From Escherichia phage vB_EcoM_Schickermooser, in sequence record NC_048196.1: 64,000 nucleotides of DNA. One strand, 5' to 3'. Below are positions 18,770 to 57,871 of this stretch, piece by piece. A program made the translations under genes and the position numbers. Position 1 is the stretch's first letter. Each line of letters starts with the position of its first letter. A model generated the notes under the pieces. It saw only the letters and a list, made by a program, of their open reading frames with translations, made no database searches and was not told the DNA's origin.

Positions 18770-19585
18770 TTATTTGTTTAAGTGGTCTTCGACCATTTTA
18801 ATGAAACCTTCATTGCTGAAGGCTGTTGCAGCTTTTTCTCGGTAAACAAAAACTCCACGATCTTCATAGAGAAGTGTTTCTTCGTAATTAACTCCAGGGT
18901 TAACTACAACCATTTTTGTACCCATACTAAGTGCAGGAAATAATTCCCAATTAAAATTGATAACTTGGTTTGAACATCCTACTACTACAACCAAATCTTG
19001 CATGGTCAAAGTATCGAACAAGTGAGCCATATCTGCATACAAAGGTGCAGCCTCACCAAAAAATACAACATTAGGCTTCACCCAGTTATAATCATCTATG
19101 TTTATACTATTGTAACCAATATCTACCAGTGTTTTGTAATCTCCAGGATGCATACGGTAAACTACTTCAGGAAGATATCCGTGTACGTGAATAACAGAAT
19201 CTCTGTCTACACCTGCTCGCTCTAGTAGATCATCAACGTTTGTTGTCAAGTTTACTATTTGGTTAGGATATTCCTTAAACCACTTTGCTATTTGAATATG
19301 TGCAGCATTAGGTTGTACATCTTTAAGCTCAACACGTCTTTTGTTATAAAATTCGTGTGTTTTGGCATACAAATCCATACCGTTCTCGTCTACACCACCG
19401 ACCACTGGAAGATCTGGAGATGTTCTAACACGATAACCTGCTTGGAAAGCTCCAATATCGCAGACCTCTTCTAAATCATATTCTTCCCATAAAGCACGAC
19501 CACTATCTGTGTCTGTTCTAAATGTTCGAATCCCACTGTCTGCACTTAAACCTGCACCGCTTACAAAAATCACTCGTCTTGGCAT
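18770..19585 (-). CDS. Sir2-family NAD-dependent deacylase/ADP-ribosyltransferase
   Basis: GAGLSADSGIRTFR matches the sirtuin GAG(I/L)S..GI..FR signature. Confidence 0.65.
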   Translation of the reverse strand: MPRRVIFVSGAGLSADSGIRTFRTDTDSGRALWEEYDLEEVCDIGAFQAGYRVRTSPDLPVVGGVDENGMDLYAKTHEFYNKRRVELKDVQPNAAHIQIAKWFKEYPNQIVNLTTNVDDLLERAGVDRDSVIHVHGYLPEVVYRMHPGDYKTLVDIGYNSINIDDYNWVKPNVVFFGEAAPLYADMAHLFDTLTMQDLVVVVGCSNQVINFNWELFPALSMGTKMVVVNPGVNYEETLLYEDRGVFVYREKAATAFSNEGFIKMVEDHLNK

Positions 19586-20113: not shown

Positions 20114-20767
20114 CTATACCAGACTTTGTAGGTATTTGTCAAGGGCTTCTTGATCGCCTTGACAAACATAGCAACGGAAGTCTTGAGCCGAAGGTTGTTT
20201 ATTTTCATCCCAGTCCCAATAAACATTACCCTTATAACGTGAACCAGGAAACTCAAAAGAGGCTGTATGTGTAATGTATCCTGGGCCACCAATGAAATCA
20301 CAGAATGAGAATTGGGGGTATGCCGCCTTTACTGCCTCAATAAACCAAGCTTTACGATCTAAAGCTTCATTGATGCTATACGCATGTCTCTCCATTTCTT
20401 CCCACGTTTTCCAGACACTTCTCTCATCAGGAGAAAAGACAAGCCATTCTGGAAGGTATAGAGTGTCATAGTAATCATCATATTCGATCTCGGAGGCGCA
20501 CGAAGCTGACTCCTCCAGTTTTGAGTAATCAAAAGCAGAATATACCCACCAACCATCTTCCAGTAACGCTTTGATAGGGACGAAGCCTTTATCAGCATAT
20601 TGATCGAATTGTTTGACACGGTGGCTTGTGCAGTCTTCAAACTCACATTCTAAACGATATGCACCTTTTCGACGAGCCTCAAGACCGTGTGTACTGAAAA
20701 TAACAACACTTCCTTCACCATCATTACGATCTACTTGATAAGCAACCACTGGTTTTGAATTTGACAT
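20114..20767 (-). CDS. hypothetical protein
   Basis: 217-aa ORF. Confidence 0.5.
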   Translation of the reverse strand: MSNSKPVVAYQVDRNDGEGSVVIFSTHGLEARRKGAYRLECEFEDCTSHRVKQFDQYADKGFVPIKALLEDGWWVYSAFDYSKLEESASCASEIEYDDYYDTLYLPEWLVFSPDERSVWKTWEEMERHAYSINEALDRKAWFIEAVKAAYPQFSFCDFIGGPGYITHTASFEFPGSRYKGNVYWDWDENKQPSAQDFRCYVCQGDQEALDKYLQSLV

Positions 20768-21450
20768 TATTTCTCCTTATCTAGAAGATTGTTAGACAAA
20801 AACACTGCACGAGCAAAACCACGTGCGGTTAGTGATCTAAGTTGTTTTGTTTTTGCACTAGCTCCACCTAAGCTTTTCCAACCCCAGAAGCAGCCTATAT
20901 GATCTACTGGTTTCTTCACTGGTTGAACAAAACCATTGCCGTGCCAAATACAAGTTTTCTTTGTATACCCATCACGGGTAGGCATTTTAGGATGAAAGCT
21001 TCCTTCCTCTTCAAACAAATACCCACCATACTCATAAGGATCAAAGTAAAAATCGGGTTTACGCCATAAGGTTGAAAGTTTACCTACTGGGTTCTCAATC
21101 ATCCAAGGAACATTATATTTGTTACCCAAAGCTTCCACTACACGAATATTAGCTAAAGCTTCATCCAATTCCTCTGTGCTGCGTTCGTGTTTGCTGCCAC
21201 TACCTGCTAACATAGTGCAAGGTGGAAATCCAAAAATAATATCGGGTTTAGGTATCCCATGATCTTCAGGGTTGAATGTAGAATCTATCCAGGCATTCAC
21301 ATAGGTTATGTTTGGGTGCTCCATCCTAACCTCGTATTTACCGTGATCCCCTTCATCAGCGTTTACACAAAAACACTTGTGACCTGCTTCGGCATAACGT
21401 AACACCATGATCCCAGATCCGTCAAACATAGACAAAACTGTTTTACTCAT
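20767..21450 (-). CDS. C5-cytosine methyltransferase-like protein (variant motifs)
   Basis: ATG 21450 after GGAGGGG; FDGSG (motif I-like), GFPPCT (PC motif IV-like), ENP (ENV-like). Confidence 0.45.
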   Translation of the reverse strand: MSKTVLSMFDGSGIMVLRYAEAGHKCFCVNADEGDHGKYEVRMEHPNITYVNAWIDSTFNPEDHGIPKPDIIFGFPPCTMLAGSGSKHERSTEELDEALANIRVVEALGNKYNVPWMIENPVGKLSTLWRKPDFYFDPYEYGGYLFEEEGSFHPKMPTRDGYTKKTCIWHGNGFVQPVKKPVDHIGCFWGWKSLGGASAKTKQLRSLTARGFARAVFLSNNLLDKEK

Positions 21451-21856
21451 TACCCCTCCATTCAAGACAAGCCATAACTTTACGCCAATCACTTTCTGTA
21501 AGAAAAATCTCGTTTGCTTTCTTCCACAAATCTAAATCGTGAAGGGTTGGAATACGGTATGTTAGTTCACAGAATCTATGCTCTTCTTCTGTAATATAAC
21601 CAAAATGCAGAGCCACATCGTGAAACCAACACCAACCATGCATCTCTCGAACAACATGGTCATGTTGAGACATTATTTTATGCCGTAAACCTAACCAACA
21701 AGGAACAGATACTTTAGTAGTCTTTAATCTGTGATCAACAGTATTAGAGTATTCAATAATAGCTGTCAGTTTCAATCGTGCTTTTTCTAAATCCTCATGC
21801 GTCACTTTGAAATAACTTTCTGAAAGATATCCACACATATTAATAACCTCCTTCAA
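21443..21856 (-). CDS. hypothetical protein
   Basis: 137-aa ORF overlapping neighbours by a few bases. Confidence 0.5.
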   Translation of the reverse strand: MKEVINMCGYLSESYFKVTHEDLEKARLKLTAIIEYSNTVDHRLKTTKVSVPCWLGLRHKIMSQHDHVVREMHGWCWFHDVALHFGYITEEEHRFCELTYRIPTLHDLDLWKKANEIFLTESDWRKVMACLEWRGNE

Positions 21857-22781
21857 AAGGCTTTACTACATGTTGATTAGCTTTAAAACGTTCAACATAG
21901 TCGTTTTCGCCCATGTTTTCATATAGCTTAATAACAACATAAAAGTTTTCCCAAGCATATTCCCTAAACCAACCACTAGTGATGGATGTGCAGACTTTAG
22001 ATAAAGCCATTATAAAACTTTGCTTAGGGGTTGGACCTCCGATCTCTCCACCGAAAGGAATTTGTGAACGTTCCAAAGCCAAAACACACGCTTCTTCATA
22101 AACACCTAACAGGCGCACATGTTTTGGTTGAGCAAAAAACTTTTCTTTGCTGGTCATAACTTCACTTCCATCTTTCATATAAGATTTATATGCCGGAGCA
22201 TCCATTACCGCGATTGCTTCATGGATAGAATCATGATCATAAACATACGGAACCTCATCACCTTTAAAAAAGTCTTTACTTTTTACGTTTAAGTTCGGAT
22301 GAGAGTAAGTGTATGTTTCTTTCTCACGCAACTCATAAATACTCTTAAGATTTTCTGGGATCTTTGCGCCCAGTGACCGCATGAAATGAATATCTTTCAT
22401 AGTTTTAAAGAAGTGAGGACTATCCTTTTTAAAACGATGACTCATTTTAAGAAGGTAGAGCACATCTAAAGGAGCAACAACATGTCCCGCGTAAGTTCGA
22501 CGAACATCATCAGAATCTTCACAATAACTAATCAAAGCTTCTGTGCTATCTCCTTGAGAAGCAATATCGTATTCCAAATGTGCACCAGCTATCATTTTGA
22601 CATGGCCTTTGTTTCCTTTACGTTCTACAAGTTCAACAAACTCCTCTTGAGAGAACATTTTTGATAATTCTTCCCACTCTTGTTCTGTACACAGGTAATC
22701 TAAATCTACACAAGGGCGATACAAGTCTTTTCCCATGTCCATAGCATGAATTTGCAATGCACGGCTACCAATTAACACCAT
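21840..22781 (-). CDS. hypothetical protein, possible nucleotidyltransferase fold
   Basis: N-terminal LIGSRALQ...DLDYL resembles GS...D.D of minimal NTase folds; GAGGAG SD. Confidence 0.45.
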   Translation of the reverse strand: MVLIGSRALQIHAMDMGKDLYRPCVDLDYLCTEQEWEELSKMFSQEEFVELVERKGNKGHVKMIAGAHLEYDIASQGDSTEALISYCEDSDDVRRTYAGHVVAPLDVLYLLKMSHRFKKDSPHFFKTMKDIHFMRSLGAKIPENLKSIYELREKETYTYSHPNLNVKSKDFFKGDEVPYVYDHDSIHEAIAVMDAPAYKSYMKDGSEVMTSKEKFFAQPKHVRLLGVYEEACVLALERSQIPFGGEIGGPTPKQSFIMALSKVCTSITSGWFREYAWENFYVVIKLYENMGENDYVERFKANQHVVKPFEGGY

Positions 22782-22811
22782 AATATTTCTCCTCTATTGG
22801 TTGATAGGTTA

Positions 22812-22840
22812 AGTTTATCAAGCTTCCAGATTCCTGTCAA
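22812..22840 (-). promoter_or_regulatory. sigma70-like promoter, minus strand (TTGACA-N17-TAAACT)
   Basis: immediately downstream of terminator hairpin, upstream of the 22781 start. Confidence 0.5.
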
Positions 22841-22845
22841 TAAAA

Positions 22846-22863
22846 AACCCGCCGAAGCGGGTT
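22846..22863 (-). terminator. intrinsic terminator, minus strand
   Basis: AACCCGC-CGAA-GCGGGTT hairpin followed on minus strand by TTTTTTA. Confidence 0.55.
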
Positions 22864-22871
22864 ATTATTTA

Positions 22872-23144
22872 CTAACACATTGAGGAAGAAGAGATCCAAA
22901 CACCTCTTGTGGTTAAACCGTTTTCATCCAACTCTACACCATAATCTTCACAAATGAAATCAATATAGTGATCTGCGGCTGGCGTTCCTGTAGGGTAATA
23001 AGTTTCTCCGTTACCGTAGTCACCTATCCAAGCTTGTTCCTGAAACTGTTCACAAAGTTCTTCAATCTCCTTACGAAACTTTCTTTGTGCTTGTTCCATC
23101 TCTTTAACTTTCTTTTTTATCAGCAGTTCGCCTTCAGACTCCAC
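22872..23144 (-). CDS. small acidic protein, 'SS-C tail' family member
   Basis: C-terminus GVWISSSSMC; two paralogs downstream. Confidence 0.5.
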   Translation of the reverse strand: MESEGELLIKKKVKEMEQAQRKFRKEIEELCEQFQEQAWIGDYGNGETYYPTGTPAADHYIDFICEDYGVELDENGLTTRGVWISSSSMC

Positions 23145-23153
23145 AATCTCTCC

Positions 23154-23414
23154 TTAACAGCTACTACTGTGCCAAACGCCTTGAGAATTAACGACGAAAC
23201 CATCATCACCTTCACCATAACAAGAAGAGGATTGCCAATCTTCAAAACAGATTGCGTCATTTTCTAAACTAAGACCAAAACCAGCATCTTCAGCTTCTTT
23301 TGTAAGTTCGTCCACTAAAGCCATAATAGCTTGGGCTTTTTCAGTTAATTCTTCAACATTACGATCACTCATTAGTATTTCTCCTCCGGTTGGAAAACTG
23401 AACGACAAGCCCAC
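23154..23414 (-). CDS. small acidic protein, 'SS-C tail' family member
   Basis: C-terminus GVWHSSSC. Confidence 0.5.
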   Translation of the reverse strand: MGLSFSFPTGGEILMSDRNVEELTEKAQAIMALVDELTKEAEDAGFGLSLENDAICFEDWQSSSCYGEGDDGFVVNSQGVWHSSSC

Positions 23415-23686
23415 ATACTAGCTTCTTTTAAATGTTTAATAGCACAACGGATTTGATCAATACGCTCGTATGCAACATCTAATTCTTTTTCTGTGCCGTC
23501 AAAAGACCCATGATATGCTTCACAATACTCTTCCTCTAAAGCTTTGAAGATTAAACCTAAACGCTCTTCTGCATCTTTAATAGCGTTAACCTTGCCAATC
23601 TTATCGTCAGTATGCGCCTTATAACCTTTGATATCTTCGATTCCCACTTTACCTCCTATTAACAACTTAAAGAAGATGGATGCCAA
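23372..23686 (-). CDS. hypothetical protein
   Basis: 104-aa ORF. Confidence 0.45.
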   Translation of the reverse strand: MASIFFKLLIGGKVGIEDIKGYKAHTDDKIGKVNAIKDAEERLGLIFKALEEEYCEAYHGSFDGTEKELDVAYERIDQIRCAIKHLKEASMWACRSVFQPEEKY

Positions 23687-23856
23687 TTTGTCCCAGTATT
23701 CTCATTTTCATCTTCTGGATCATAATAACCCCCCATCCCATATTCAGGGGAGAAACGGAAACCTTCTCCAGTCTCGTCTGCTAACTGCTCTGCTTCCGCT
23801 AAAGCATCATAAGCTGCTTTTACGGCTTCTTCTACTGTTTTAAACTTGGTCGTCAT
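23659..23856 (-). CDS. small acidic protein, 'SS-C tail' family member
   Basis: C-terminus TNWHPSSLSC. Confidence 0.5.
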   Translation of the reverse strand: MTTKFKTVEEAVKAAYDALAEAEQLADETGEGFRFSPEYGMGGYYDPEDENENTGTNWHPSSLSC

Positions 23857-24130
23857 AAAATTTCTCCTCTCCTAAAGACATGGTGACATGAAATGCACGA
23901 TATGTAAATTCGTTGTCCGTTGTGTTTGAATAAAACTCAAATTGAACAACACCGTCTTGAGAAGACAAATACATGCCAATTTGAACTGTACCTTCTGGTA
24001 CCAGGTAAGCATACTCTGGGCGTAGTGTTACATTGTAAAAATAAAGTTCCCCAACACCCATTTCATCCCAAGCTTCCCAAGCGGTAACGAAGTTACTTTC
24101 AAAACTTGTTACTGATCCGAACTCTGCCAT
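23840..24130 (-). CDS. hypothetical protein
   Basis: 96-aa ORF. Confidence 0.5.
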   Translation of the reverse strand: MAEFGSVTSFESNFVTAWEAWDEMGVGELYFYNVTLRPEYAYLVPEGTVQIGMYLSSQDGVVQFEFYSNTTDNEFTYRAFHVTMSLGEEKFYDDQV

Positions 24131-24621
24131 AAAACCTCCTCAATCTTGTAGTTTGACTCCATCTCCAACACATTTCCACGAACGTCTCTCCGAAGAAAGG
24201 CATAAGCTTTATTAGGTATTGTAGACTCATATTTAACCATATCTGGCACAGCAAAAGATACTACTACTCCTGCTGGACTTCTGTCAAGAGCCTTATTAAT
24301 ATTTCTAAGGATATCATTAGCCAAGATCTCTGCCAATTCTCCAAGAACAGTTTCGGTTATATCTTTATATCCCATTAAGTATTTGTTGATATCTTTCATC
24401 TCTGTATTGTTCAGAGTATAATCTAAAGGATAGAAATTCAAAGCGGAGTCACTTTTATGTGTCCACATGAAATGTACCCGATCCGAGCAGAATCGTAACC
24501 CTCTACGAAGAATATCTTCTACAACAGGGAGAATTTCTTTTGTCACATCATTAACCATGTTGTAATCTAAGATTTCTGCCAAATTTGTTCTTTGTTCACC
24601 ACGTTTACGTTTAGGAATCAC
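24109..24621 (-). CDS. hypothetical protein
   Basis: 170-aa ORF. Confidence 0.5.
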   Translation of the reverse strand: MIPKRKRGEQRTNLAEILDYNMVNDVTKEILPVVEDILRRGLRFCSDRVHFMWTHKSDSALNFYPLDYTLNNTEMKDINKYLMGYKDITETVLGELAEILANDILRNINKALDRSPAGVVVSFAVPDMVKYESTIPNKAYAFLRRDVRGNVLEMESNYKIEEVLWQSSDQ

Positions 24622-25192
24622 TTGTTATTGCCCTCATTACCAAAGGTCGTAGAAAATCGTAAATCTCTTGTTTTGTTTTCCCACGAATGTTTAAACAAGG
24701 AACATTATTGGCTTTAGCTATCTTCCAAGCCGTAGCTGTTCCACCTTTTGCATCTCCATGTTTATCAGTATTAGCACAAGCCAACAAGAAACATGATGGA
24801 GCAGGATTCTCCAAATCTCTACCTAACACTTGATGCACATTACGTTGGTGCAATTTTCTAGCACCCTGCTTAAGCTTTTCATAGGCTGGGTGAACATCTT
24901 TGATCCATTGCACAGAGATAGCATAGTTCATTGTATCTGGTTTTGCAAGAACAATAACATCCCCTGGAATCTGATTACCTTTGAAATTTTCCCAAGGAAC
25001 ATAAATCTCCTTGTTAGTAGGATTTTCAGACTCTTGGACACCTGTTTCAAAAGCAGAATCACTACCCTCTGCCTTCCCAGACCTTAATTTAAACCCAAGG
25101 TTTGAAAGCCATTTCCCTATACCTACCATCAAAGCCCACTCTTCTTCGGATATGTCTCTACTTCCAACTCCCGTATAGAACAGTTCTGCCAT
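24611..25192 (-). CDS. DprA/Smf-like (SLOG-type Rossmann) protein
   Basis: ATG 25192 after GAGGTGA; YTGVGSRD and SGKAEGSD motifs. Confidence 0.45.
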   Translation of the reverse strand: MAELFYTGVGSRDISEEEWALMVGIGKWLSNLGFKLRSGKAEGSDSAFETGVQESENPTNKEIYVPWENFKGNQIPGDVIVLAKPDTMNYAISVQWIKDVHPAYEKLKQGARKLHQRNVHQVLGRDLENPAPSCFLLACANTDKHGDAKGGTATAWKIAKANNVPCLNIRGKTKQEIYDFLRPLVMRAITSDS

Positions 25193-25199
25193 AATCACC

Positions 25200-25508
25200 T
25201 CAACAAGTAATTTCAAAAGGTGTATACGGTTCCGTATTTCTCATGATCCAAGGACTGCTAGGATTGCTCGGATCATAAGGACCAAAAGGTTTTATGGTCG
25301 GTTGTGTTTCTTTCTTCTGAATCTCTTCAAAAATACGACGAAGTTCAGAATATTCTTGATCCACCATAAGATTCGGTGCATCTGATTCTACAGCTTGCAG
25401 GTTATCTTCCTTAAGAACAATCTCACGAACAAGATTAACATCTTCTGTTTCTAAGATAACTTCTTTACGGATATTACCTACACTTTGAATAATTGTAATC
25501 TTATACAT
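25200..25508 (-). CDS. hypothetical protein
   Basis: 102-aa ORF. Confidence 0.5.
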   Translation of the reverse strand: MYKITIIQSVGNIRKEVILETEDVNLVREIVLKEDNLQAVESDAPNLMVDQEYSELRRIFEEIQKKETQPTIKPFGPYDPSNPSSPWIMRNTEPYTPFEITC

Positions 25509-26251
25509 TAATCCTCCTCAAGAGTTGAATAAAATTGAAGACCACCGTCCATATCGAAATAAGCAAATGTTAAGTTATTATTGAACACAGATCCAGTATC
25601 CATATAAACACGATTCGCATTGATAATAGGTGTTTTTACATAAGAGTGTCCATGAAACACATAATCCACACCCATCACAACAGGAAGTTTCATTCCCTCT
25701 TTAGCACAGTCTACCATATCTCTGTCCCACATAAGTGCTTCAGCAAAACGGTTTTCCTGTGTTTTTGTCATCTTCGAAATGTATTCTGGAATATCTGTTA
25801 CAGGGAGATATTCCAAAGAAGATGGATACCCACCATGAATAAACGCAAGTTTCATGCCTCTGTAGTTAACAATGAGAACAACAGGTAAATCTTCTGTCAT
25901 CATTGCTAAGGCTGTAGCTCCTTCTTCACCACATTCTTCAAAGACCGTATATCCTCCATTTTGATACCAACACTCGTAGTAGCTACGATCTCCTTCCAGC
26001 ATACCTTTAATCATCATGTCTTCATGATTGCCACGAATAGCGTAGCGATTGTGTTTACGAGTAAATTCTAAAACACAACGAAAGTTTTGCTTTCCACGGT
26101 CAGTAAGATCTCCTAGAGATACAACCACATCTGTATCTCGGATACCTAACTTTGCCTTTCCTTTTTCATACAAATTATAACAACCGTGTAGATCTCCAAT
26201 TATAAAAAGATCTTGATCGCTTTTAACAGTAATTTCTCTGTGTATGATCAC
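25508..26251 (-). CDS. Ser/Thr protein phosphatase (lambda-phosphatase-like metallophosphoesterase)
   Basis: GDLHG, GDLTDRG and GNHE motifs. Confidence 0.7.
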   Translation of the reverse strand: MIIHREITVKSDQDLFIIGDLHGCYNLYEKGKAKLGIRDTDVVVSLGDLTDRGKQNFRCVLEFTRKHNRYAIRGNHEDMMIKGMLEGDRSYYECWYQNGGYTVFEECGEEGATALAMMTEDLPVVLIVNYRGMKLAFIHGGYPSSLEYLPVTDIPEYISKMTKTQENRFAEALMWDRDMVDCAKEGMKLPVVMGVDYVFHGHSYVKTPIINANRVYMDTGSVFNNNLTFAYFDMDGGLQFYSTLEED

Positions 26252-26577
26252 TTATCCTCCTCAAAATCTAAGAAAATAAAAATATTCACCTTTCCTTCAA
26301 TCTCTTGTTCTAAAACAAGATCGGCAAATTCTGCATAAGCTTTCTCTTCAACTTTTTCAATATGTTCTGCGGCATCTTTAAAAGGTGTATCCCCATCCAC
26401 CTTTACTAATAAGAAAAGAGATCGCATTTCGACGCTTTTACTGTTACGAGGAAGGAAATCTACAGCTTCAACAATTCTCCAACCCAAATAGCCAGGGGTT
26501 TTATGAATCTCCCCTAAATACTTTTCTAAGATTTTACGACCCTCGTCGATAAGGGCTTGTTCTGTAGTAATTTCCAT
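26248..26577 (-). CDS. hypothetical protein
   Basis: 109-aa ORF. Confidence 0.5.
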   Translation of the reverse strand: MEITTEQALIDEGRKILEKYLGEIHKTPGYLGWRIVEAVDFLPRNSKSVEMRSLFLLVKVDGDTPFKDAAEHIEKVEEKAYAEFADLVLEQEIEGKVNIFIFLDFEEDK

Positions 26578-26587
26578 TCCTTCCTCC

Positions 26588-27178
26588 TCAAATTATTAAC
26601 GAAACCGCATGACTAAATCTTGGTTCAGATATAACCTCTGCTACAGTCACATATGTATCGTGCAGCCAAAAAGATTCTACTCTACAAACACAAATACCGT
26701 TGATAATGAAATCTACACAGGATTTATTATTTTCGCACACCTGTTGACTATAAACAACCCCTAAAGAGTCATAAAGTGATCTCACTGTTGCTACCATTTC
26801 ATCTGTTTCGTCTTCCTGTGAAACAAAGAAAACGAATACAGACAAGTTATTAGCGAAAGTATTGCTATTCTCTACTTCAACCGACTTACAAGGTAAAAAG
26901 GAGTAATATTTACCGTTAGGTATCAATTTCGCCTCAACCTGGTTAAGTATGCTTTGAGATGGTTTTGTTACATAAAAAAGATTTTCTGTTGGGTTTTCAA
27001 CATTACTCCTTACTATGCAACGAGTGGGGTTCGAAGGATCAAAAACATGATCGAAATCGACACACACAGGTAAGTTAACAACTTTAAACTTTTTGCTAAG
27101 AATGCTTACTGCTGTAAAAATCAAACCAGCATTTATTTTGCCAGTGAAAGTTGAACGCATAACTACTCCTCGGATCAT
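26588..27178 (-). CDS. hypothetical protein
   Basis: 196-aa ORF. Confidence 0.5.
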   Translation of the reverse strand: MIRGVVMRSTFTGKINAGLIFTAVSILSKKFKVVNLPVCVDFDHVFDPSNPTRCIVRSNVENPTENLFYVTKPSQSILNQVEAKLIPNGKYYSFLPCKSVEVENSNTFANNLSVFVFFVSQEDETDEMVATVRSLYDSLGVVYSQQVCENNKSCVDFIINGICVCRVESFWLHDTYVTVAEVISEPRFSHAVSLII

Positions 27179-27369
27179 TCTACCAAAGAGAATTCCGCCT
27201 CTTCCAGGTAGATTACAGACCTTGTTGCATGATATTTAACGCTCCAGAAATTACCTTCGCGCCGTAAAAGTATCTCATTCACATCAAGATTGCTTAGAAA
27301 AACCATATAACTTAAAGCTTGTTGACGCGTTGAGAATTGTTTCTCTAAAAGTTCTTCTCCGCTCTGCAT
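27175..27369 (-). CDS. hypothetical protein
   Basis: 64-aa ORF, ATGA overlap. Confidence 0.45.
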   Translation of the reverse strand: MQSGEELLEKQFSTRQQALSYMVFLSNLDVNEILLRREGNFWSVKYHATRSVIYLEEAEFSLVE

Positions 27370-27414
27370 AATCCCTCCTTAAAATACTCCCTCCGAAAAG
27401 GGAGTATAAGTATA

Positions 27415-27618
27415 TCACGTAGTTGTTATGTTGTCTTCTTGGATACTAGAATCCACTTCTGCAAACATATCTTCTGCACTGTAATTATTTCCAGTCCAGC
27501 GTGATAAAAGGATAGCACCAATCTCTTTTGCATGAGATTCGGACTCTGCATAAACGTTAGTCCCAGTGTCACCTTTTTTCTTTTCATGTGCATAAATGCA
27601 GTAATAATTGTAAGCCAT
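27415..27618 (-). CDS. hypothetical protein
   Basis: 67-aa ORF. Confidence 0.45.
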   Translation of the reverse strand: MAYNYYCIYAHEKKKGDTGTNVYAESESHAKEIGAILLSRWTGNNYSAEDMFAEVDSSIQEDNITTT

Positions 27619-27854
27619 TAATCTTCCCAGTCATTGCCCTCGGTAGAGTGAACTAAAGCTCGCACGATACCACCGTAATCTACTGCCTGATTTGCAGCAT
27701 GTTCGGCATAAACTTCAATGGCTTTTTTGAAGAAAAGAGCAGTAGCTGCTTCAATATTATCCATTTCGCCATCTACGTCAGTAGAAAGTGAAAGGTTGAG
27801 GCTTTCATCTACTTCATCAAAATCAATAGCCACTGTCATAATTAGTTTACCCAT
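27618..27854 (-). CDS. hypothetical protein
   Basis: 78-aa ORF. Confidence 0.45.
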   Translation of the reverse strand: MGKLIMTVAIDFDEVDESLNLSLSTDVDGEMDNIEAATALFFKKAIEVYAEHAANQAVDYGGIVRALVHSTEGNDWED

Positions 27855-27866
27855 AGTTCACACTCC

Positions 27867-28376
27867 TTAAACAAAATAAAATGGTTGAGAGAGGCCCAAA
27901 CGATTCTTTGGGTCGTATACATACCAAGCGTATGCTGTCTTATCTGTTCCACCTGCAACAAACGAAGGACGTTCTGAAAGGACTATAAGGTTTGTTGGTG
28001 GATTCTTTTGATGGAACTCTCGTCGTTTCTTTGACTCCAAGAAGCCCAACCGAAGAAGATAAATACAAACATCCGCCTCTTTTAAGCTCTTTTCCAAGAA
28101 CTCCATTGCTAACTTAAATGGAGGATTTGTGATTATAATGTCGGGACGATTTTCCCATTCATGACTAAAATAATCTTTACCTTCTTCAAGTTCGCAATAT
28201 TCTGAACCTTCAGGAAAATGGCGATAAATCGCTTCAGCTTCACCTCTGCAAGGTTCTGCAAAAACCCAACCTTCTTCCTTTAGATTTTTGAAATCTATAA
28301 CACTAAACAAACTATTGATTGCTTTTTGCGGTGTCGGATAATAATCGCTCGTTGGGCGATCATAATCTAATGCCAT
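27867..28376 (-). CDS. small Dam-like N6-adenine DNA methyltransferase (putative)
   Basis: DIIITNPPF resembles catalytic motif IV (D/N)PP(Y/F); 169 aa. Confidence 0.45.
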   Translation of the reverse strand: MALDYDRPTSDYYPTPQKAINSLFSVIDFKNLKEEGWVFAEPCRGEAEAIYRHFPEGSEYCELEEGKDYFSHEWENRPDIIITNPPFKLAMEFLEKSLKEADVCIYLLRLGFLESKKRREFHQKNPPTNLIVLSERPSFVAGGTDKTAYAWYVYDPKNRLGLSQPFYFV

Positions 28377-28794
28377 CTAAAATCTCCTCTTTTGTAATAT
28401 TATCCAACTCTTTAAAGGATGAAATCTCGTTTAATAATCCTATTTGATCAGCCTCTAGAGGATAAGTGTTTTTATCTGTTTTTCTAGACAGAATATCTTC
28501 AACAAACTTATCAATAGCCAAAGAAGAATCATAAAATTTTAAAAGTTGGTAATCCATAGGAGATATTTTGTCATCTCTTAGAAATATTTCTAACATGTTT
28601 TCAGGAGTATCGTGGTTTAGTTTATGTTCACCAAAAATATTAACTTCGTAAACATCTTTGCCAAACCAACGTTTCTTCTTTTCAACAGTATAGGTTTTTG
28701 CCACCAGACCATCTAAACAGTTTCTTGCCCTCTTACATGTTTGACGGTAAGAGTGGATAGCGCCTTCAACAAACTTAGCAGGAACTTGTAACAT
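28360..28794 (-). CDS. hypothetical protein
   Basis: 144-aa ORF. Confidence 0.5.
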   Translation of the reverse strand: MLQVPAKFVEGAIHSYRQTCKRARNCLDGLVAKTYTVEKKKRWFGKDVYEVNIFGEHKLNHDTPENMLEIFLRDDKISPMDYQLLKFYDSSLAIDKFVEDILSRKTDKNTYPLEADQIGLLNEISSFKELDNITKEEILDGIRL

Positions 28795-28839: not shown

Positions 28840-29532
28840 TTAAATAGCGGTTCCTTCGAAATCCGCCACATTTACGAGATTAATATTTTCAGATTTAGAA
28901 GTCAAGTTGTTTTCTGCAACAGATTTTTCTTCAGTATCCGCCTCGTTACCTGCCACGTTACGAGGTTCTTCTTCACCGTAGGGATTACCGAATTTCAAAA
29001 GATTGATCAATTCTTCTTTGGAGAAGTTTTCTAAATCATCATCTGTTAATTCAATAATCTCGTCTTGTTCTTCAATAAATGTTTCACCACCAGAAAAAGC
29101 ATCTCGCTTTTTAGCTACTTCCATAGCCTGTTCTGGTGTTGCCCCTGCATCAAGAGCAGCTAAAGCAAAGTCTGACCCGCTTCCTACCGCATAATATTCT
29201 TCATCAATCGGATATGCACGTGTTGGGTTATTACCTTCGTGCAGGAAAATACGTCCGTCTGGATGAACAACAAGTGCAATAAACTCTTCATCTTCTTTAT
29301 CTGGATCAGAGTGAATCATCAAACCAGGGACAGCATCACGTGCTGCTTCGCACTGTAGATTTTGTTCAAACCATTGAAAGAAAGAAAGCACGGAGGTCAG
29401 ACGACCAGCACCACCTACAAGGTAATCTCCAATTTTTCGGACCTTTTTGAAATTAATAGAATCTACACGTCCACCAAAAGTTACCTTACCGTCACTCAAA
29501 ATCTTATTTTTGGTTGCAATAATTGTCGTCAC
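28840..29532 (-). CDS. HslV/proteasome-beta-like Ntn-hydrolase peptidase
   Basis: N-terminus MTTIIATKN (Thr right after Met), GGAGR and AVGSGSDFALAA resemble HslV; acidic C-terminal extension. Confidence 0.55.
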   Translation of the reverse strand: MTTIIATKNKILSDGKVTFGGRVDSINFKKVRKIGDYLVGGAGRLTSVLSFFQWFEQNLQCEAARDAVPGLMIHSDPDKEDEEFIALVVHPDGRIFLHEGNNPTRAYPIDEEYYAVGSGSDFALAALDAGATPEQAMEVAKKRDAFSGGETFIEEQDEIIELTDDDLENFSKEELINLLKFGNPYGEEEPRNVAGNEADTEEKSVAENNLTSKSENINLVNVADFEGTAI

Positions 29533-55946: not shown

Positions 55947-56021
55947 GGCCCTGTAGCTCAATGGGAGAGCTGTCGGCTCATAACCGATAGGTAGCTGGAT
56001 CGAAACCAGCCAGGGCCACCA
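55947..56021 (+). tRNA. tRNA-Met (anticodon CAT; could be Ile2/lysidine type)
   Basis: manual cloverleaf: acceptor GGCCCTG/CAGGGCC, anticodon loop CTCATAA, encoded CCA. Confidence 0.6.
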
Positions 56022-56023
56022 AA

Positions 56024-56098
56024 GTCTTTATGGTGTAATGGATAGCACAGGAGTCTTCTAAACTCTTAGTCAAGGTTCGATTCCTTGTAAAGACACCA
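56024..56098 (+). tRNA. tRNA-Arg (anticodon TCT)
   Basis: acceptor GTCTTTA/TAAAGAC, anticodon loop CTTCTAA, T-loop TTCGATT, CCA. Confidence 0.6.
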
Positions 56099-56100
56099 GA

Positions 56101-56286
56101 ACATTTTAACATGAATTAGCTCAAGTGATTTGAACCCACTACTGATCATGGTGGCAGAGAATGAGGCAAGTATGTCAGACATTATAAACAAAGGCCACGG
56201 TTATATTAGAAGACATAAATGCTCGAAGAGCACCGTTCGTGGAGAACGGGGGTTGGTGGAGTCACCATTCATGGTAAAATGTTTTA
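56101..56286 (+). ncRNA. candidate structured RNA flanked by 17-bp near-perfect inverted repeat
   Basis: AACATTTTAACATGAAT at 56101 pairs with ATTCATGGTAAAATGTT at 56270 (one mismatch). Confidence 0.3.
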
Positions 56287-56294
56287 AAAAACTA

Positions 56295-56324
56295 TTGACA
56301 ACAAGTATTATTTTATGTTAGATT
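56295..56324 (+). promoter_or_regulatory. sigma70-like promoter candidate (TTGACA-N18-TAGATT)
   Basis: TTGACA 56295-56300; immediately upstream of tRNA-Ser. Confidence 0.45.
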
Positions 56325-56332
56325 ATAAGTAT

Positions 56333-56423
56333 GGAAGGGCAAATCGACGTGGCGACGAAAACGGTCTTGAAAACCGCCGAGCTTTAAAGAGCCTTGGGAG
56401 TTCGACTCTCCCTCCTTCCGCCA
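56333..56423 (+). tRNA. tRNA-Ser (anticodon TGA), type II
   Basis: acceptor GGAAGGG/TCCTTCC, loop CTTGAAA, long variable arm, CCA. Confidence 0.55.
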
Positions 56424-56428
56424 GGTTA

Positions 56429-56514
56429 GGTAGATTGGTGAAATGGTAGCCACGACAGTTTGCTAAACTGTAGTCGGAAACGGCGTGTAGGTTCGAGTCC
56501 TACATCTACCGCCA
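56429..56514 (+). tRNA. tRNA-Ser (anticodon GCT), type II
   Basis: acceptor GGTAGAT/ATCTACC, loop TTGCTAA, long variable arm, CCA. Confidence 0.6.
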
Positions 56515-56516
56515 AG

Positions 56517-56625
56517 TTCTTTTTAATGTAGCTTACTTTAATAGAGTAAACTTTCGGCAAATGGCCCCCACCATCTTACCGATAACTCATAGTTAGTGGT
56601 GCGAACACTGGCTATTTTAAAAAGA
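56517..56625 (+). ncRNA. candidate structured element between tRNAs
   Basis: TTCTTTTTAA at 56517 versus TTAAAAAGAA at 56616 inverted repeat; internal hairpins. Confidence 0.2.
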
Positions 56626-56643
56626 ATTTAAATACTAGCATTT

Positions 56644-56731
56644 AGGTGAGTTAATTCCGTAGGGGTAGCGGGGCAGACTGTAAATCTGTTATCATTGCGA
56701 TTCGGGTGGTTCGACTCCATCACTCACCACC
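56644..56731 (+). tRNA. tRNA-Tyr (anticodon GTA), type II
   Basis: acceptor GGTGAGT/ACTCACC, loop CTGTAAA, long variable arm, CCA. Confidence 0.55.
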
Positions 56732-56737
56732 AAATTA

Positions 56738-56823
56738 AGATGAGTTGGCTGAATGGTTTAAGCGGCGGACTGTTAATCCGTGTTCGAAAGAACGATATAG
56801 GTTCAAATCCTATACTCATCGCC
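56738..56823 (+). tRNA. type II tRNA with apparent anticodon GTT (Asn anticodon on long-variable-arm body)
   Basis: acceptor GATGAGT/ACTCATC, anticodon stem GCGGA/TCCGT, loop CTGTTAA, variable hairpin GTTC-GAAA-GAAC, CCA. Confidence 0.45.
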
Positions 56824-56830
56824 AGAATTA

Positions 56831-56908
56831 TGGACTTGTAGAGTTAAGGTAAACCCCCCAGTCGCCAAGAGGCTTCTGGAATTGCAGGTATCGAATCCTG
56901 CCGAGTCC
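56831..56908 (+). tRNA. tRNA-like element, atypical (anticodon not assignable)
   Basis: 7-bp acceptor pairing GGACTTG/CGAGTCC and T-arm GCAGG/CCTGC with 8-nt loop; no canonical anticodon arm. Confidence 0.3.
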
Positions 56909-56914
56909 CAGCTT

Positions 56915-56989
56915 TGCTCCTATAGTATAATGGCTATTACAACGGTTTTGTAATCCGTGGATCTCTGTTCGATTCAGAGTGGGAGCACC
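56915..56989 (+). tRNA. tRNA-Thr (anticodon TGT)
   Basis: acceptor GCTCCTA/TGGGAGC, loop TTTGTAA, T-arm CTCTG-TTCGATT-CAGAG, CCA. Confidence 0.55.
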
Positions 56990-57263
56990 AACACAACATT
57001 AAGGGCACTGTGATTGATCGTCGTATCCTGTGCACAAGGTCTGTTCGAAAGACAGTGTTCTTAGTATTGTGTTGATCACAAAAAGAGTTACCTGAAACTT
57101 GACCGGAGTAGGGTTGGATGGGGCAAAAGAAGAAGCGGCTCTCCCATCGACAGCAACGAAGAATAATATTTGACTTTGGTTTTGTATTATTTTAAGTTAG
57201 CTTACCGAACGTAGGGCTAGTCACCCAATGGGATACTCGTCACTGTCCCACTCAATAAAACTA

Positions 57264-57293
57264 TTGACAACCAATAGTAAAATGTAGTATAGT
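57264..57293 (+). promoter_or_regulatory. sigma70-like promoter candidate (TTGACA-N18-TATAGT)
   Basis: TTGACA 57264-57269, TATAGT 57288-57293; upstream of tRNA-Gly. Confidence 0.5.
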
Positions 57294-57304
57294 AAAGATG
57301 TAGG

Positions 57305-57378
57305 GCGTTCTTGGTGTAGCGGTAGCATTCCGTCCTTCCAAGTCGGCGGCACGAGTTCGATCCTCGTAGAACGCTCCA
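57305..57378 (+). tRNA. tRNA-Gly (anticodon TCC)
   Basis: acceptor GCGTTCT/AGAACGC, loop CTTCCAA, T-arm ACGAG-TTCGATC-CTCGT, CCA. Confidence 0.55.
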
Positions 57379-57476
57379 AATTATTTAATAAAGGGTTGCC
57401 AGAAAACTTTCTCTTTTACTCATGGTTTTCTCCTTCTCTCACACCTCTTCTGGTTGCCCTTCATTAAATGATTTAT

Positions 57477-57552
57477 TGGTTTGTAGTGTAGTCAGGTAGC
57501 ACACGACACTTTGACTGTCGTAGGTTTGGTTCAAATCCAGACAGACCAGCCA
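57477..57552 (+). tRNA. tRNA-Gln (anticodon TTG)
   Basis: U1-A72 acceptor TGGTTTG/CAGACCA, anticodon stem CGACA/TGTCG, loop CTTTGAC, CCA. Confidence 0.55.
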
Positions 57553-57557
57553 TATAA

Positions 57558-57634
57558 CGGAATTTAGCTCAGTTTGGTAGAGCATACGCTTTGGGAGCGT
57601 AGGGTCGCAGGTTCGAATCCTGCAATTCCGACCA
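57558..57634 (+). tRNA. tRNA-Pro (anticodon TGG)
   Basis: acceptor CGGAATT/AATTCCG, loop TTTGGGA, T-arm GCAGG-TTCGAAT-CCTGC, CCA. Confidence 0.65.
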
Positions 57635-57640
57635 ATTTAA

Positions 57641-57714
57641 TGTTTCGTAGTTCAATGGTAGAACCCACGACTGATAATCGTGAGACACAAGTTCGATTCT
57701 TGTCGAAACAACCA
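57641..57714 (+). tRNA. tRNA-Ile (anticodon GAT)
   Basis: acceptor TGTTTCG/CGAAACA, anticodon stem CACGA/TCGTG, loop CTGATAA, CCA. Confidence 0.55.
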
Positions 57715-57717
57715 ATT

Positions 57718-57786
57718 TCCCGTTAGACTTACAGGATAAGAGTTCCACAGCTTATTGTGATGCTGGTTCGAATCCAGCACGGGATA
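57718..57786 (+). tRNA. tRNA-like element with non-canonical anticodon arm
   Basis: T-arm GCTGG-TTCGAAT-CCAGC and 6/7 acceptor pairing; best anticodon stem CACA/TGTG encloses a 6-nt loop; no CCA. Confidence 0.3.
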
Positions 57787-57792
57787 CATAAT

Positions 57793-57871
57793 AGCGGGAT
57801 AGAGGAGTCTGGTCGTCCTCGCCAGTTTCATATGCTGGAGATCATCGGTTCAAATCCGATTCCCGCCTCCA
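57793..57871 (+). tRNA. tRNA-Met (anticodon CAT), 1-72 mismatch (initiator-like?)
   Basis: acceptor AGCGGGA/TCCCGCC with A1-C72 mismatch, anticodon stem CCAGT/GCTGG, loop TTCATAT, T-loop TTCAAAT, CCA. Confidence 0.5.

Follow-up and report, generated by a model that had tools for sequence, protein, structure and literature searches.

Introduction

The characterized relative of one of the two proteins described here, ORF A, is the Dcm protein of phage K42, a member of the Drexlerviridae that is 95% identical to KarlJaspers (Bas06) (bioRxiv 10.1101/2023.08.16.553469). All four of the K42 mutants that escaped retron Ec86 were disrupted in, or mutated just upstream of, a 711-bp dcm gene, and the toxicity of K42 Dcm expressed alone was restricted to retron-carrying cells (bioRxiv 10.1101/2023.08.16.553469). 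The 5-methylcytosine (5mC) content of the multicopy single-stranded DNA (msDNA), determined by liquid chromatography with mass spectrometry (LC-MS), was high with wild-type K42 Dcm and low with the C82A/E128A/K175A/K176A variant or the empty vector, and Ec86 defense was lost when the CCTGG in the msDNA stem-loop was altered (bioRxiv 10.1101/2023.08.16.553469; peer-reviewed version, Wang et al., Cell Rep 2024, 43:114857). In this study, we analyzed a 64,000-nucleotide stretch of Escherichia phage vB_EcoM_Schickermooser (sequence record NC_048196.1; this whole stretch is hereafter called the window) and two open reading frames (ORFs) on its minus strand, ORF A at positions 20767 to 21450 and ORF B at positions 27867 to 28376. 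Homologs of ORF A are annotated in the BASEL collection as "Dcm-like C5 cytosine methyltransferase".

An earlier note on this DNA had picked out both ORFs as small methyltransferase-like proteins with non-canonical catalytic motifs. Translation confirmed both at these coordinates on the minus strand, behind Shine-Dalgarno sites and with the quoted motifs in place, and the methyltransferase call was borne out for each by its fold, its PHROG family, and its invariant catalytic motifs. Judged from sequence and predicted structure, both proteins are methyltransferases, and the earlier interpretation was partly right. We consider that both are small single-domain nucleic-acid methyltransferases dependent on S-adenosylmethionine (AdoMet), ORF A acting on C5 of cytosine and ORF B likely on N6 of adenine in DNA, and we put the probability of this account as a whole at roughly 65%.

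Results

ORF A as a member of a compact C5-cytosine DNA methyltransferase family

The Dcm-like gene of KarlJaspers (MZ501090) is exactly 711 bp long, and its product carries C82, E128, K175, and K176. Residues 5-220 of ORF A were aligned with this product at 50% identity (BLASTP, E = 1e-71). The two proteins belong to the same PHROG-level family, are similarly compact (236 and 227 amino acids [aa], respectively), and share identical FPPCT, IENPVGKLSTLWRKPD, KKTC, and RSLTPRGFARAVF as well as the same Cys/Glu/Lys-Lys residues, although K42 and KarlJaspers (Drexlerviridae) differ from the phage carrying ORF A in phage family and genomic context. Because ORF A aligns to KarlJaspers Dcm with C78 at C82, E119 at E128, and K164/K165 at K175/K176, it belongs to a family with demonstrated DNA 5mC formation. 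From its sequence, ORF A is very likely a DNA 5mC methyltransferase.

The product of ORF A, a compact "Dcm-like" C5-cytosine DNA methyltransferase by its family assignment (phrog_757), is 227 aa long counted from the ATG at 21448-21450, which is preceded by a strong Shine-Dalgarno site (GGAGGGG, 21453-21459). A longer form starting with a GTG at 21492 was rejected in view of the Shine-Dalgarno site, the family alignment, and public annotation; the start codons of both ORFs agree with those in public records. Motif I, FDGSG (residues 9-13; 21412-21426), corresponds to the AdoMet-binding loop and was aligned with FxGxG of M.HaeIII and M.HhaI; its D10 is invariant and its G13 nearly so, even at 33% identity. 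Motif IV, PPCT (residues 76-79; 21214-21225), contains the predicted catalytic Cys78, which was aligned with C81 of HhaI, with the PPC of HaeIII, and with C82 of KarlJaspers Dcm, the counterpart of the C82 mutated in K42 Dcm; F75, P76, C78, and T79 are invariant. Low values of the predicted local distance difference test (pLDDT) were found for loop 79-87 of the predicted model, as for a mobile catalytic loop. Motif VI, ENPVG (residues 119-123; 21082-21096), provides Glu119 and lies on a beta-strand of the model, as expected; E119, N120, and P121 are invariant, and E119 is aligned with E128 of KarlJaspers and K42.

In the C-terminal half, the order of elements and the secondary structure of the model suggest that YTKKT (20953-20967; Y162, K164, and T166 invariant) is the equivalent of motif VIII, and its K164/K165 match the two lysines that were mutated within the inactive quadruple mutant of K42 Dcm. 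A short segment (residues 172-198; 20857-20937), the most variable stretch of the divergent alignment, stands in place of a target-recognition domain and may have a role in sequence recognition. It is followed by a motif IX-like helix, RSLTARGFARAV (20803-20838; R205, S206, T208, A213, A215, and V216 invariant), which by inspection resembles RKLHPRECARVM of M.HhaI, the sequence of which was verified.

The family model phrog_757, named "DNA methyltransferase", matched ORF A over its full length (residues 1-225, E = 1.8e-84). A word-indexed search returned 870 clusters at 90% identity, the best 120 of which each shared 60% identity or more with ORF A, and an exhaustive profile search returned 1,803 representatives of clusters at 50% identity, of which 758 had E ≤ 1e-10. 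By tblastn, the family was found in 1,486 phage records, spread over Drexlerviridae, Webervirus, Vequintavirinae, PVP-SE1-like phages, Krischvirus, mEp021, SO-1, the P1-like phage D6, and others. Since nearly all full-length matches are 200-260 aa long, the small size of ORF A is the normal form of the family and not a truncation. In a divergent alignment that takes in members only 33-40% identical (KB57, Azospirillum phage Cd, and D6), the invariant positions were D10, F75-P76-x-C78-T79, G85, E119-N120-P121, D160-x-Y162-x-K164-x-T166, R205-S206-x-T208, and A213-x-A215-V216. FPxCT and ENP are invariant across this alignment and are therefore the family's own signature rather than degenerate motifs; they should be taken to mark an active family of compact C5-methyltransferases. 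The earlier suggestion that PCT and ENP might hint at a substrate other than DNA found no support for ORF A, as both are invariant in a family whose K42 member forms 5mC while its catalytic mutant does not.

The C5-methyltransferase fold was present in the ORF A model, and the best fold matches were DNMT3B and bacterial C5-methyltransferases. A substrate of free nucleotides, for example, methylation of deoxycytidine monophosphate (dCMP) before incorporation, would agree with the small size and with the lack of an obvious DNA-binding domain. However, known dCMP-modifying enzymes have the thymidylate-synthase fold, unlike that of ORF A, and the structural neighbors of the ORF A model are all polynucleotide C5-methyltransferases. 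Moreover, the K42 homolog raised 5mC in msDNA in dependence on a specific stem-loop site, and the restriction-site avoidance described below speaks against wholesale base replacement. Reading the variant motifs as adaptations to a free nucleotide is thus hardly credible.

Several observations weigh against ORF A being a C5-cytosine methyltransferase of the Dcm type. The Pfam model PF00145 scored ORF A at 11.6 bits (E = 0.18), below its cutoff of 22, the NCBIfam scan of ORF A gave no match, and none of the 32 aligned family members matched a Pfam or NCBIfam model at E ≤ 0.01. A search of the PDB with the family profile matched no sequence; the single sequence of ORF A gave only a weak match to M.HaeIII (E = 0.08). 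In hhalign, the ORF A family was aligned with verified M.HhaI over motifs I-IV alone, with C78 opposite C81, and motifs VI-X were therefore mapped by inspection and secondary structure. Canonical C5-methyltransferases (PF00145: M.HhaI, M.HaeIII, and the catalytic domain of DNMT3A/B) carry PCQ, ENV, and QxRxR, whereas ORF A carries PCT, ENP, and Y-x-K-K-T; in place of QxRxR it reads Y162-T-K164-K165-T166, with no Arg. The canonical recognition domain comprises at least 80 residues, whereas ORF A has no real recognition domain between motifs VIII and IX but ~25 variable residues, and M.HhaI exceeds it in length by ~100 residues. Behind RSLT(A/P)RGFARAV, which resembles motif IX (R-x-x-T-x-x-E), only ~11 residues remain before the end of the protein, and they contain no GN-type motif X. 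As for the target, CCWGG was assigned to K42 Dcm from mutation of the msDNA site and not from a methylome, and the host used was dcm+, with a Dcm of its own that evidently left the retron untriggered (bioRxiv 10.1101/2023.08.16.553469). In addition, the putative recognition loop (HIGCFWGWKSLGG in ORF A and DKDNPGWAKTGG in KarlJaspers Dcm) differs at residues 181-193, and because of this difference, the target specificity of ORF A may differ from that of K42/KarlJaspers Dcm. The really atypical traits of ORF A are YTKKT in place of QxRxR, the missing GN-type motif X, and a recognition domain cut to ~25 residues.

ORF B as a minimal gamma-class amino-methyltransferase core

ORF B encodes 169 aa and is a gamma-class amino-methyltransferase core that lacks a recognition domain (phrog_799). 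Its ATG at 28374-28376 is preceded by a strong Shine-Dalgarno site (GAGGAG, 28384-28389). Near the N terminus, YYPTP (residues 12-16; 28329-28343) resembles motif X, with T15 invariant and Y13 and P16 nearly so. It is followed by motif I, EPCRG (residues 41-45; 28242-28256), with invariant E41, P42, and C43 and a nearly invariant G45, and by motif IV, TNPPF (residues 83-87; 28116-28130), which is predicted to be catalytic and in which T83, N84, P85, and P86 do not vary and position 87 is occupied by F or Y. This order from X through I to IV, in which the AdoMet loop precedes the catalytic motif, is gamma-like and was unique to ORF B in the window. The only Pfam model to match the NPPF stretch was EcoRI_methylase (model positions 134-157, E = 0.02). 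NPPF is the form found in M.EcoRI. The earlier description of NPPF as non-canonical was mistaken, as it falls within the (D/N/S)PP(Y/F/W) consensus.

The motifs of both ORFs were beyond chance, being unique in the window and built on residues that are invariant within each family. In the 323 stop-to-stop segments that were 60 aa or longer, F.G.G, P.C, and EN[VP] occurred in the correct order and spacing in ORF A only, and [DNS]PP[YFW] occurred in ORF B only. No further methyltransferase was found by this motif scan of the 323 segments. The hidden Markov model searches that the earlier note had proposed gave no significant match to unrelated Rossmann enzymes.

The model phrog_799, named "DNA methyltransferase", matched ORF B at E = 2.8e-59; this family has no curated Pfam or NCBIfam model, and the NCBIfam scan of ORF B gave no match. 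The ORF B family was present in 542 phage records, including Phapecoctavirus, phi92-like phages (85% identity), rV5-like and PVP-SE1-like phages (~48%), Aeromonas and Vibrio phages (among them the peduovirus VPUSM 8), and phages of Staphylococcus, Listeria, Geobacillus, and Campylobacter; partial matches were found in cyanophages and phiCbK. A profile search returned at least 4,454 proteins, the best 120 of which were all ~160-200 aa long and without a Pfam domain. Gamma-class N6-adenine methyltransferases (M.TaqI, M.EcoRI, M.BseCI, MmeI, and type I HsdM) are 380-550 aa long, and their C-terminal recognition domain is wholly absent from ORF B, which in the model ends after the seventh strand of the core. 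Added segments were seen in the alignment in the family members P0158, P0171, P0190, and P0225 and in P0153, P0161, and P0166. In some members of the family, the RPSF and GTD motifs are separated by an inserted Cys-rich stretch (CxxC...CxC) that resembles a zinc ribbon, and others have a ~55-aa low-complexity C-terminal tail; these could be add-on recognition elements.

DNA or RNA as the substrate of ORF B

The structural comparison of ORF B did not separate DNA from RNA substrates. Its two top fold matches were the RNA methyltransferases PH1948 and METTL5, and ORF B combines the METTL5/PH1948 fold with the NPPF motif. These matches would suit an RNA methyltransferase of the METTL5/PH1948 or Erm/KsgA type that acts on host ribosomal RNA (rRNA) or on phage transfer RNAs (tRNAs). 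However, DNA methyltransferases matched the fold essentially equally, with scores of 13.1 for MmeI, 12.9 for M.TaqI, 12.3 for BseCI, 11.9 for CamA, and 11-12 for type I M subunits. At the level of sequence, METTL5 and PH1948 had no significant match to ORF B, and no evidence of a TRMT112-like partner was found for it. The sequence matches of the family also favored the EcoRI_methylase, Eco57I, and Dam models over the MTS model: weak matches to the former were found (EcoRI_methylase in 14 of 37 members; best member, E = 3e-4), with no member above any gathering threshold, whereas MTS (PF05175) was not significant for ORF B (E = 0.29) and matched one of the 37 members at E ≤ 0.01. A PDB search with the family profile gave weak matches to DpnA and Erm only, and the matches of a BFVD fold search with ORF B were all phage proteins that were predicted or had no name.

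The genomic contexts of the family in phages are DNA replication modules, in contrast to the RNA role of METTL5 and PH1948. In Vibrio phage VPUSM 8, the homolog lies directly upstream of a replication nickase gene, and in a Streptococcus prophage, it adjoins RecT and Holliday-junction resolvase genes. That homologs occur in the replication and recombination modules of small temperate phages argues against an RNA substrate; to our knowledge, these phages presumably lack tRNA genes. The weak DNA-methylase model matches, together with these contexts, are evidence favoring DNA.

Other findings count against a DNA adenine methyltransferase, beginning with the rank of PH1948 and METTL5 in the fold search. 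ORF B is acidic (isoelectric point [pI], 5.2), and the Phapecoctavirus/phi92 clade to which it belongs has the second Gly of GxG replaced (GEAEA) and a one-residue insertion. The score of EcoRI_methylase for ORF B was 14.7 bits, below the threshold of 26.4, and no Pfam model reached its threshold. No characterized member of the family was found in the literature, including that on rV5, phi92, and K139 orf8, or in structure searches, and the literature held nothing usable among phage methylomes bearing on the specificity of either family. The ten tRNA genes of the window (Met ×2, Arg, Ser, Asn, Thr, Gly, Gln, Pro, and Ile; 55947-57871, plus strand, just past the strand switch near 54 kb) are in principle possible substrates. 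We infer the substrate of ORF B throughout from such comparisons. On balance, we lean toward methylation of adenine in DNA, most likely with limited rather than blanket specificity, and regard an RNA methyltransferase as unlikely.

Restriction-site avoidance points to narrow specificities

Site statistics were calculated for window positions 1-64000 as observed/expected ratios (O/E), with a Markov model providing the expectation for CCWGG. GTAC was strongly avoided (O/E 0.35, z = -8.9), and CCGG (O/E 0.31) and GGCC (O/E 0.46) were strongly depleted. CTGCAG, GGATCC, and CAGCTG were absent, compared with 14, 8.6, and 6.9 expected sites, respectively. GATC (O/E 0.93) and CCWGG (62 observed and 71 expected, O/E 0.87) were not avoided. 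The depletion of CCGG and GGCC fits a narrow specificity of ORF A that spares these sites and is compatible with CCWGG; the non-avoidance of CCWGG is equally expected since E. coli hosts methylate CCWGG themselves.

Non-specific adenine methyltransferases of phages and prophages exist, and Hia5/Hin1523 and M.EcoGII, orphan enzymes used against restriction, resemble ORF B in being borne by a phage or prophage. With both ORFs lacking a recognition domain, they might likewise be "blanket" methylases (for adenine, as Hia5 and M.EcoGII) that give broad protection against restriction. However, Hia5/Hin1523 and M.EcoGII belong to sequence families other than that of ORF B, and the strong avoidance of GTAC, CCGG, and GGCC and the absence of CTGCAG, GGATCC, and CAGCTG would be needless if all C or A were methylated. 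In the BASEL restriction test, which covered relatives of Phapecoctavirus and not Phapecoctavirus itself, Vequintavirinae and phi92-like phages were "exceptionally susceptible" to EcoKI, EcoCFT_I, EcoRI, EcoRV, EcoP1_I, and EcoCFT_II. These phages carry homologs of both ORF A (~48%) and ORF B (48-85%). Because relatives with both homologs are highly sensitive to restriction, any protective effect of ORF A or ORF B would be at most narrow, a further point on the opposing side. Non-specific methylation, very improbable for either protein, was rejected on the site-avoidance statistics and the BASEL data, which speak for narrow specificities and no more than a narrow benefit against restriction. 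The anti-restriction role offered in the earlier note thus survives at best in a narrow form.

Genomic contexts and proposed action of ORF A

Homologs of ORF A lie in replication or recombination modules. They adjoin a helicase gene in Drexlerviridae, primase/helicase and DNA polymerase genes in Vequintavirus, and ligase and primase/helicase genes in PVP-SE1 and KB57. In Azospirillum phage Cd, the homolog is near a Holliday-junction resolvase gene and directly upstream of a primosomal protein gene, and in D6, it adjoins an exonuclease gene and a homolog of the C-terminal half of P1 Dmt. In this P1-like Escherichia phage (NC_050154.1, 1471-3049), the ORF A homolog is directly upstream of, and overlaps, the gene that resembles only the C-terminal, C5-methyltransferase half of Dmt, so that it sits roughly in the place of the N-terminal half.

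ORF A itself is presumably active, and its catalytic steps may be taken from established C5-methyltransferase chemistry. With AdoMet bound at FDGSG and the target cytosine flipped out, Cys78 (in FPPCT) is predicted to attack C6 and Glu119 (in ENP) to protonate N3, and C5 would receive the methyl group of AdoMet. The ~25-residue loop between the motif VIII-like and IX-like elements and other conserved aromatic segments may replace the recognition domain. The product would likely be site-specific 5mC, possibly at CCWGG, which could protect the DNA from cognate restriction enzymes and could also be a liability by activating retron Eco1/Ec86.

Gene setting and the question of a partner subunit

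The window was 99.6% identical over 9 kb to Escherichia phage vB_EcoM_ESCO25 (Phapecoctavirus) and 98-99.5% identical to dozens of further Phapecoctavirus genomes (subfamily Stephanstirmvirinae). Several near-identical public records already label both ORFs "DNA methyltransferase". Because near-identical genomes carry these annotations and the ORF A family has been studied experimentally, the finding is already known. Both ORFs lie in a minus-strand gene block, delimited by GC skew at ~18 kb-54 kb of the window, and the best explanation is that they are part of an early or middle gene block of a Phapecoctavirus.

As in tightly packed phage operons, both ORFs overlap their neighbors by a few bases. 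The start of ORF A is overlapped by 8 nt by the stop of the upstream ORF (21443-21838), its stop overlaps the ATG of the next gene (TAATG; 20114-20767), and the start of ORF B is overlapped by 17 nt by an upstream ORF (28360-28794). All three neighbors belong to PHROGs without known function. One or both proteins might therefore need a separate specificity or stabilizing partner, for example, one of these coupled neighbors, in the manner of split C5-methyltransferases or METTL5-TRMT112, or might be inactive AdoMet-binding remnants; the missing recognition domains and the atypical motif I of the ORF B clade would fit such readings. However, K42 Dcm expressed alone from a plasmid was enough for 5mC formation and retron triggering, and the catalytic residues are invariant over thousands of sequences, which is unexpected for dead remnants. 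A conserved partner subunit was rejected because the neighbors of the ORF A family, and likewise those of the ORF B family, are wholly different between phage groups. A need for a partner and a loss of activity are together improbable.

Further genes of the block, all on the minus strand, were also recorded. A Sir2-family (NAD-dependent deacetylase-like) gene (18770-19585; PF02146, E = 1.9e-22; phrog_2162) closes the block and lies two genes downstream of ORF A. The second gene upstream of ORF A, 21840-22781, encodes a 313-aa protein with DUF7277 (E = 1e-13) and DUF7275 (E = 7.5e-76). Three small, very acidic ORFs at 22872-23856 (90, 86, and 65 aa; pI 4.0-4.4) have in common a C-terminal W-x-(x)-S-S-(x)-(x)-C (...GVWISSSSMC, ...GVWHSSSC, and ...NWHPSSLSC) and appear to be local paralogs of one another. 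A DprA-like recombination-mediator homolog (phrog_768, no Pfam match) is encoded at 24611-25216, between the two methyltransferase genes. A 196-aa ORF at 26588-27178 is labeled "histidyl tRNA synthetase" by its PHROG (phrog_4806), a label carried into GenBank records; it is probably misleading, as no Pfam match backs it and 196 aa are far too few for this enzyme. An HslV-like peptidase gene (28840-29532) lies directly upstream of the cluster of ORF B.

In the database matches, six GenBank records named "Campylobacter phage" (MG065639, MG065647, MG065654, MG065658, MG065674, and MG065681; host, C. jejuni) matched genes that are characteristic of rV5-like, phi92-like, and Drexlerviridae phages of E. 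coli; identity to window proteins was 48-85%, and the lengths of the records fit those groups. This suggests mislabeled hosts or contaminant phages.

Discussion

For annotation, the two genes are routine, as near-identical public genomes already label both as DNA methyltransferases. Neither family is at present captured by Pfam or NCBIfam, and knowledge of the specificities of the two families would annotate thousands of phage genes.

We also considered jointly that the ORF B family is either a phage RNA N6-methyladenosine methyltransferase of the METTL5/PH1948 type or a tiny DNA one and that the ORF A subfamily has a target other than CCWGG, a combination that we regard as doubtful. If the ORF B family acts on RNA, modification of host rRNA or phage tRNA could bias translation. 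If ORF B acts on DNA, few known adenine methyltransferases that read a sequence would be as small, and it would work without a dedicated recognition domain. If the ORF A subfamily reads a target other than CCWGG, it would do so via the ~25-residue loop.

By analogy with K42 Dcm, ORF A is predicted to be a candidate trigger of retron Eco1/Ec86. If ORF A triggers this retron, the hosts that carry it may be defended against Phapecoctavirus phages, a group in use in therapy cocktails.

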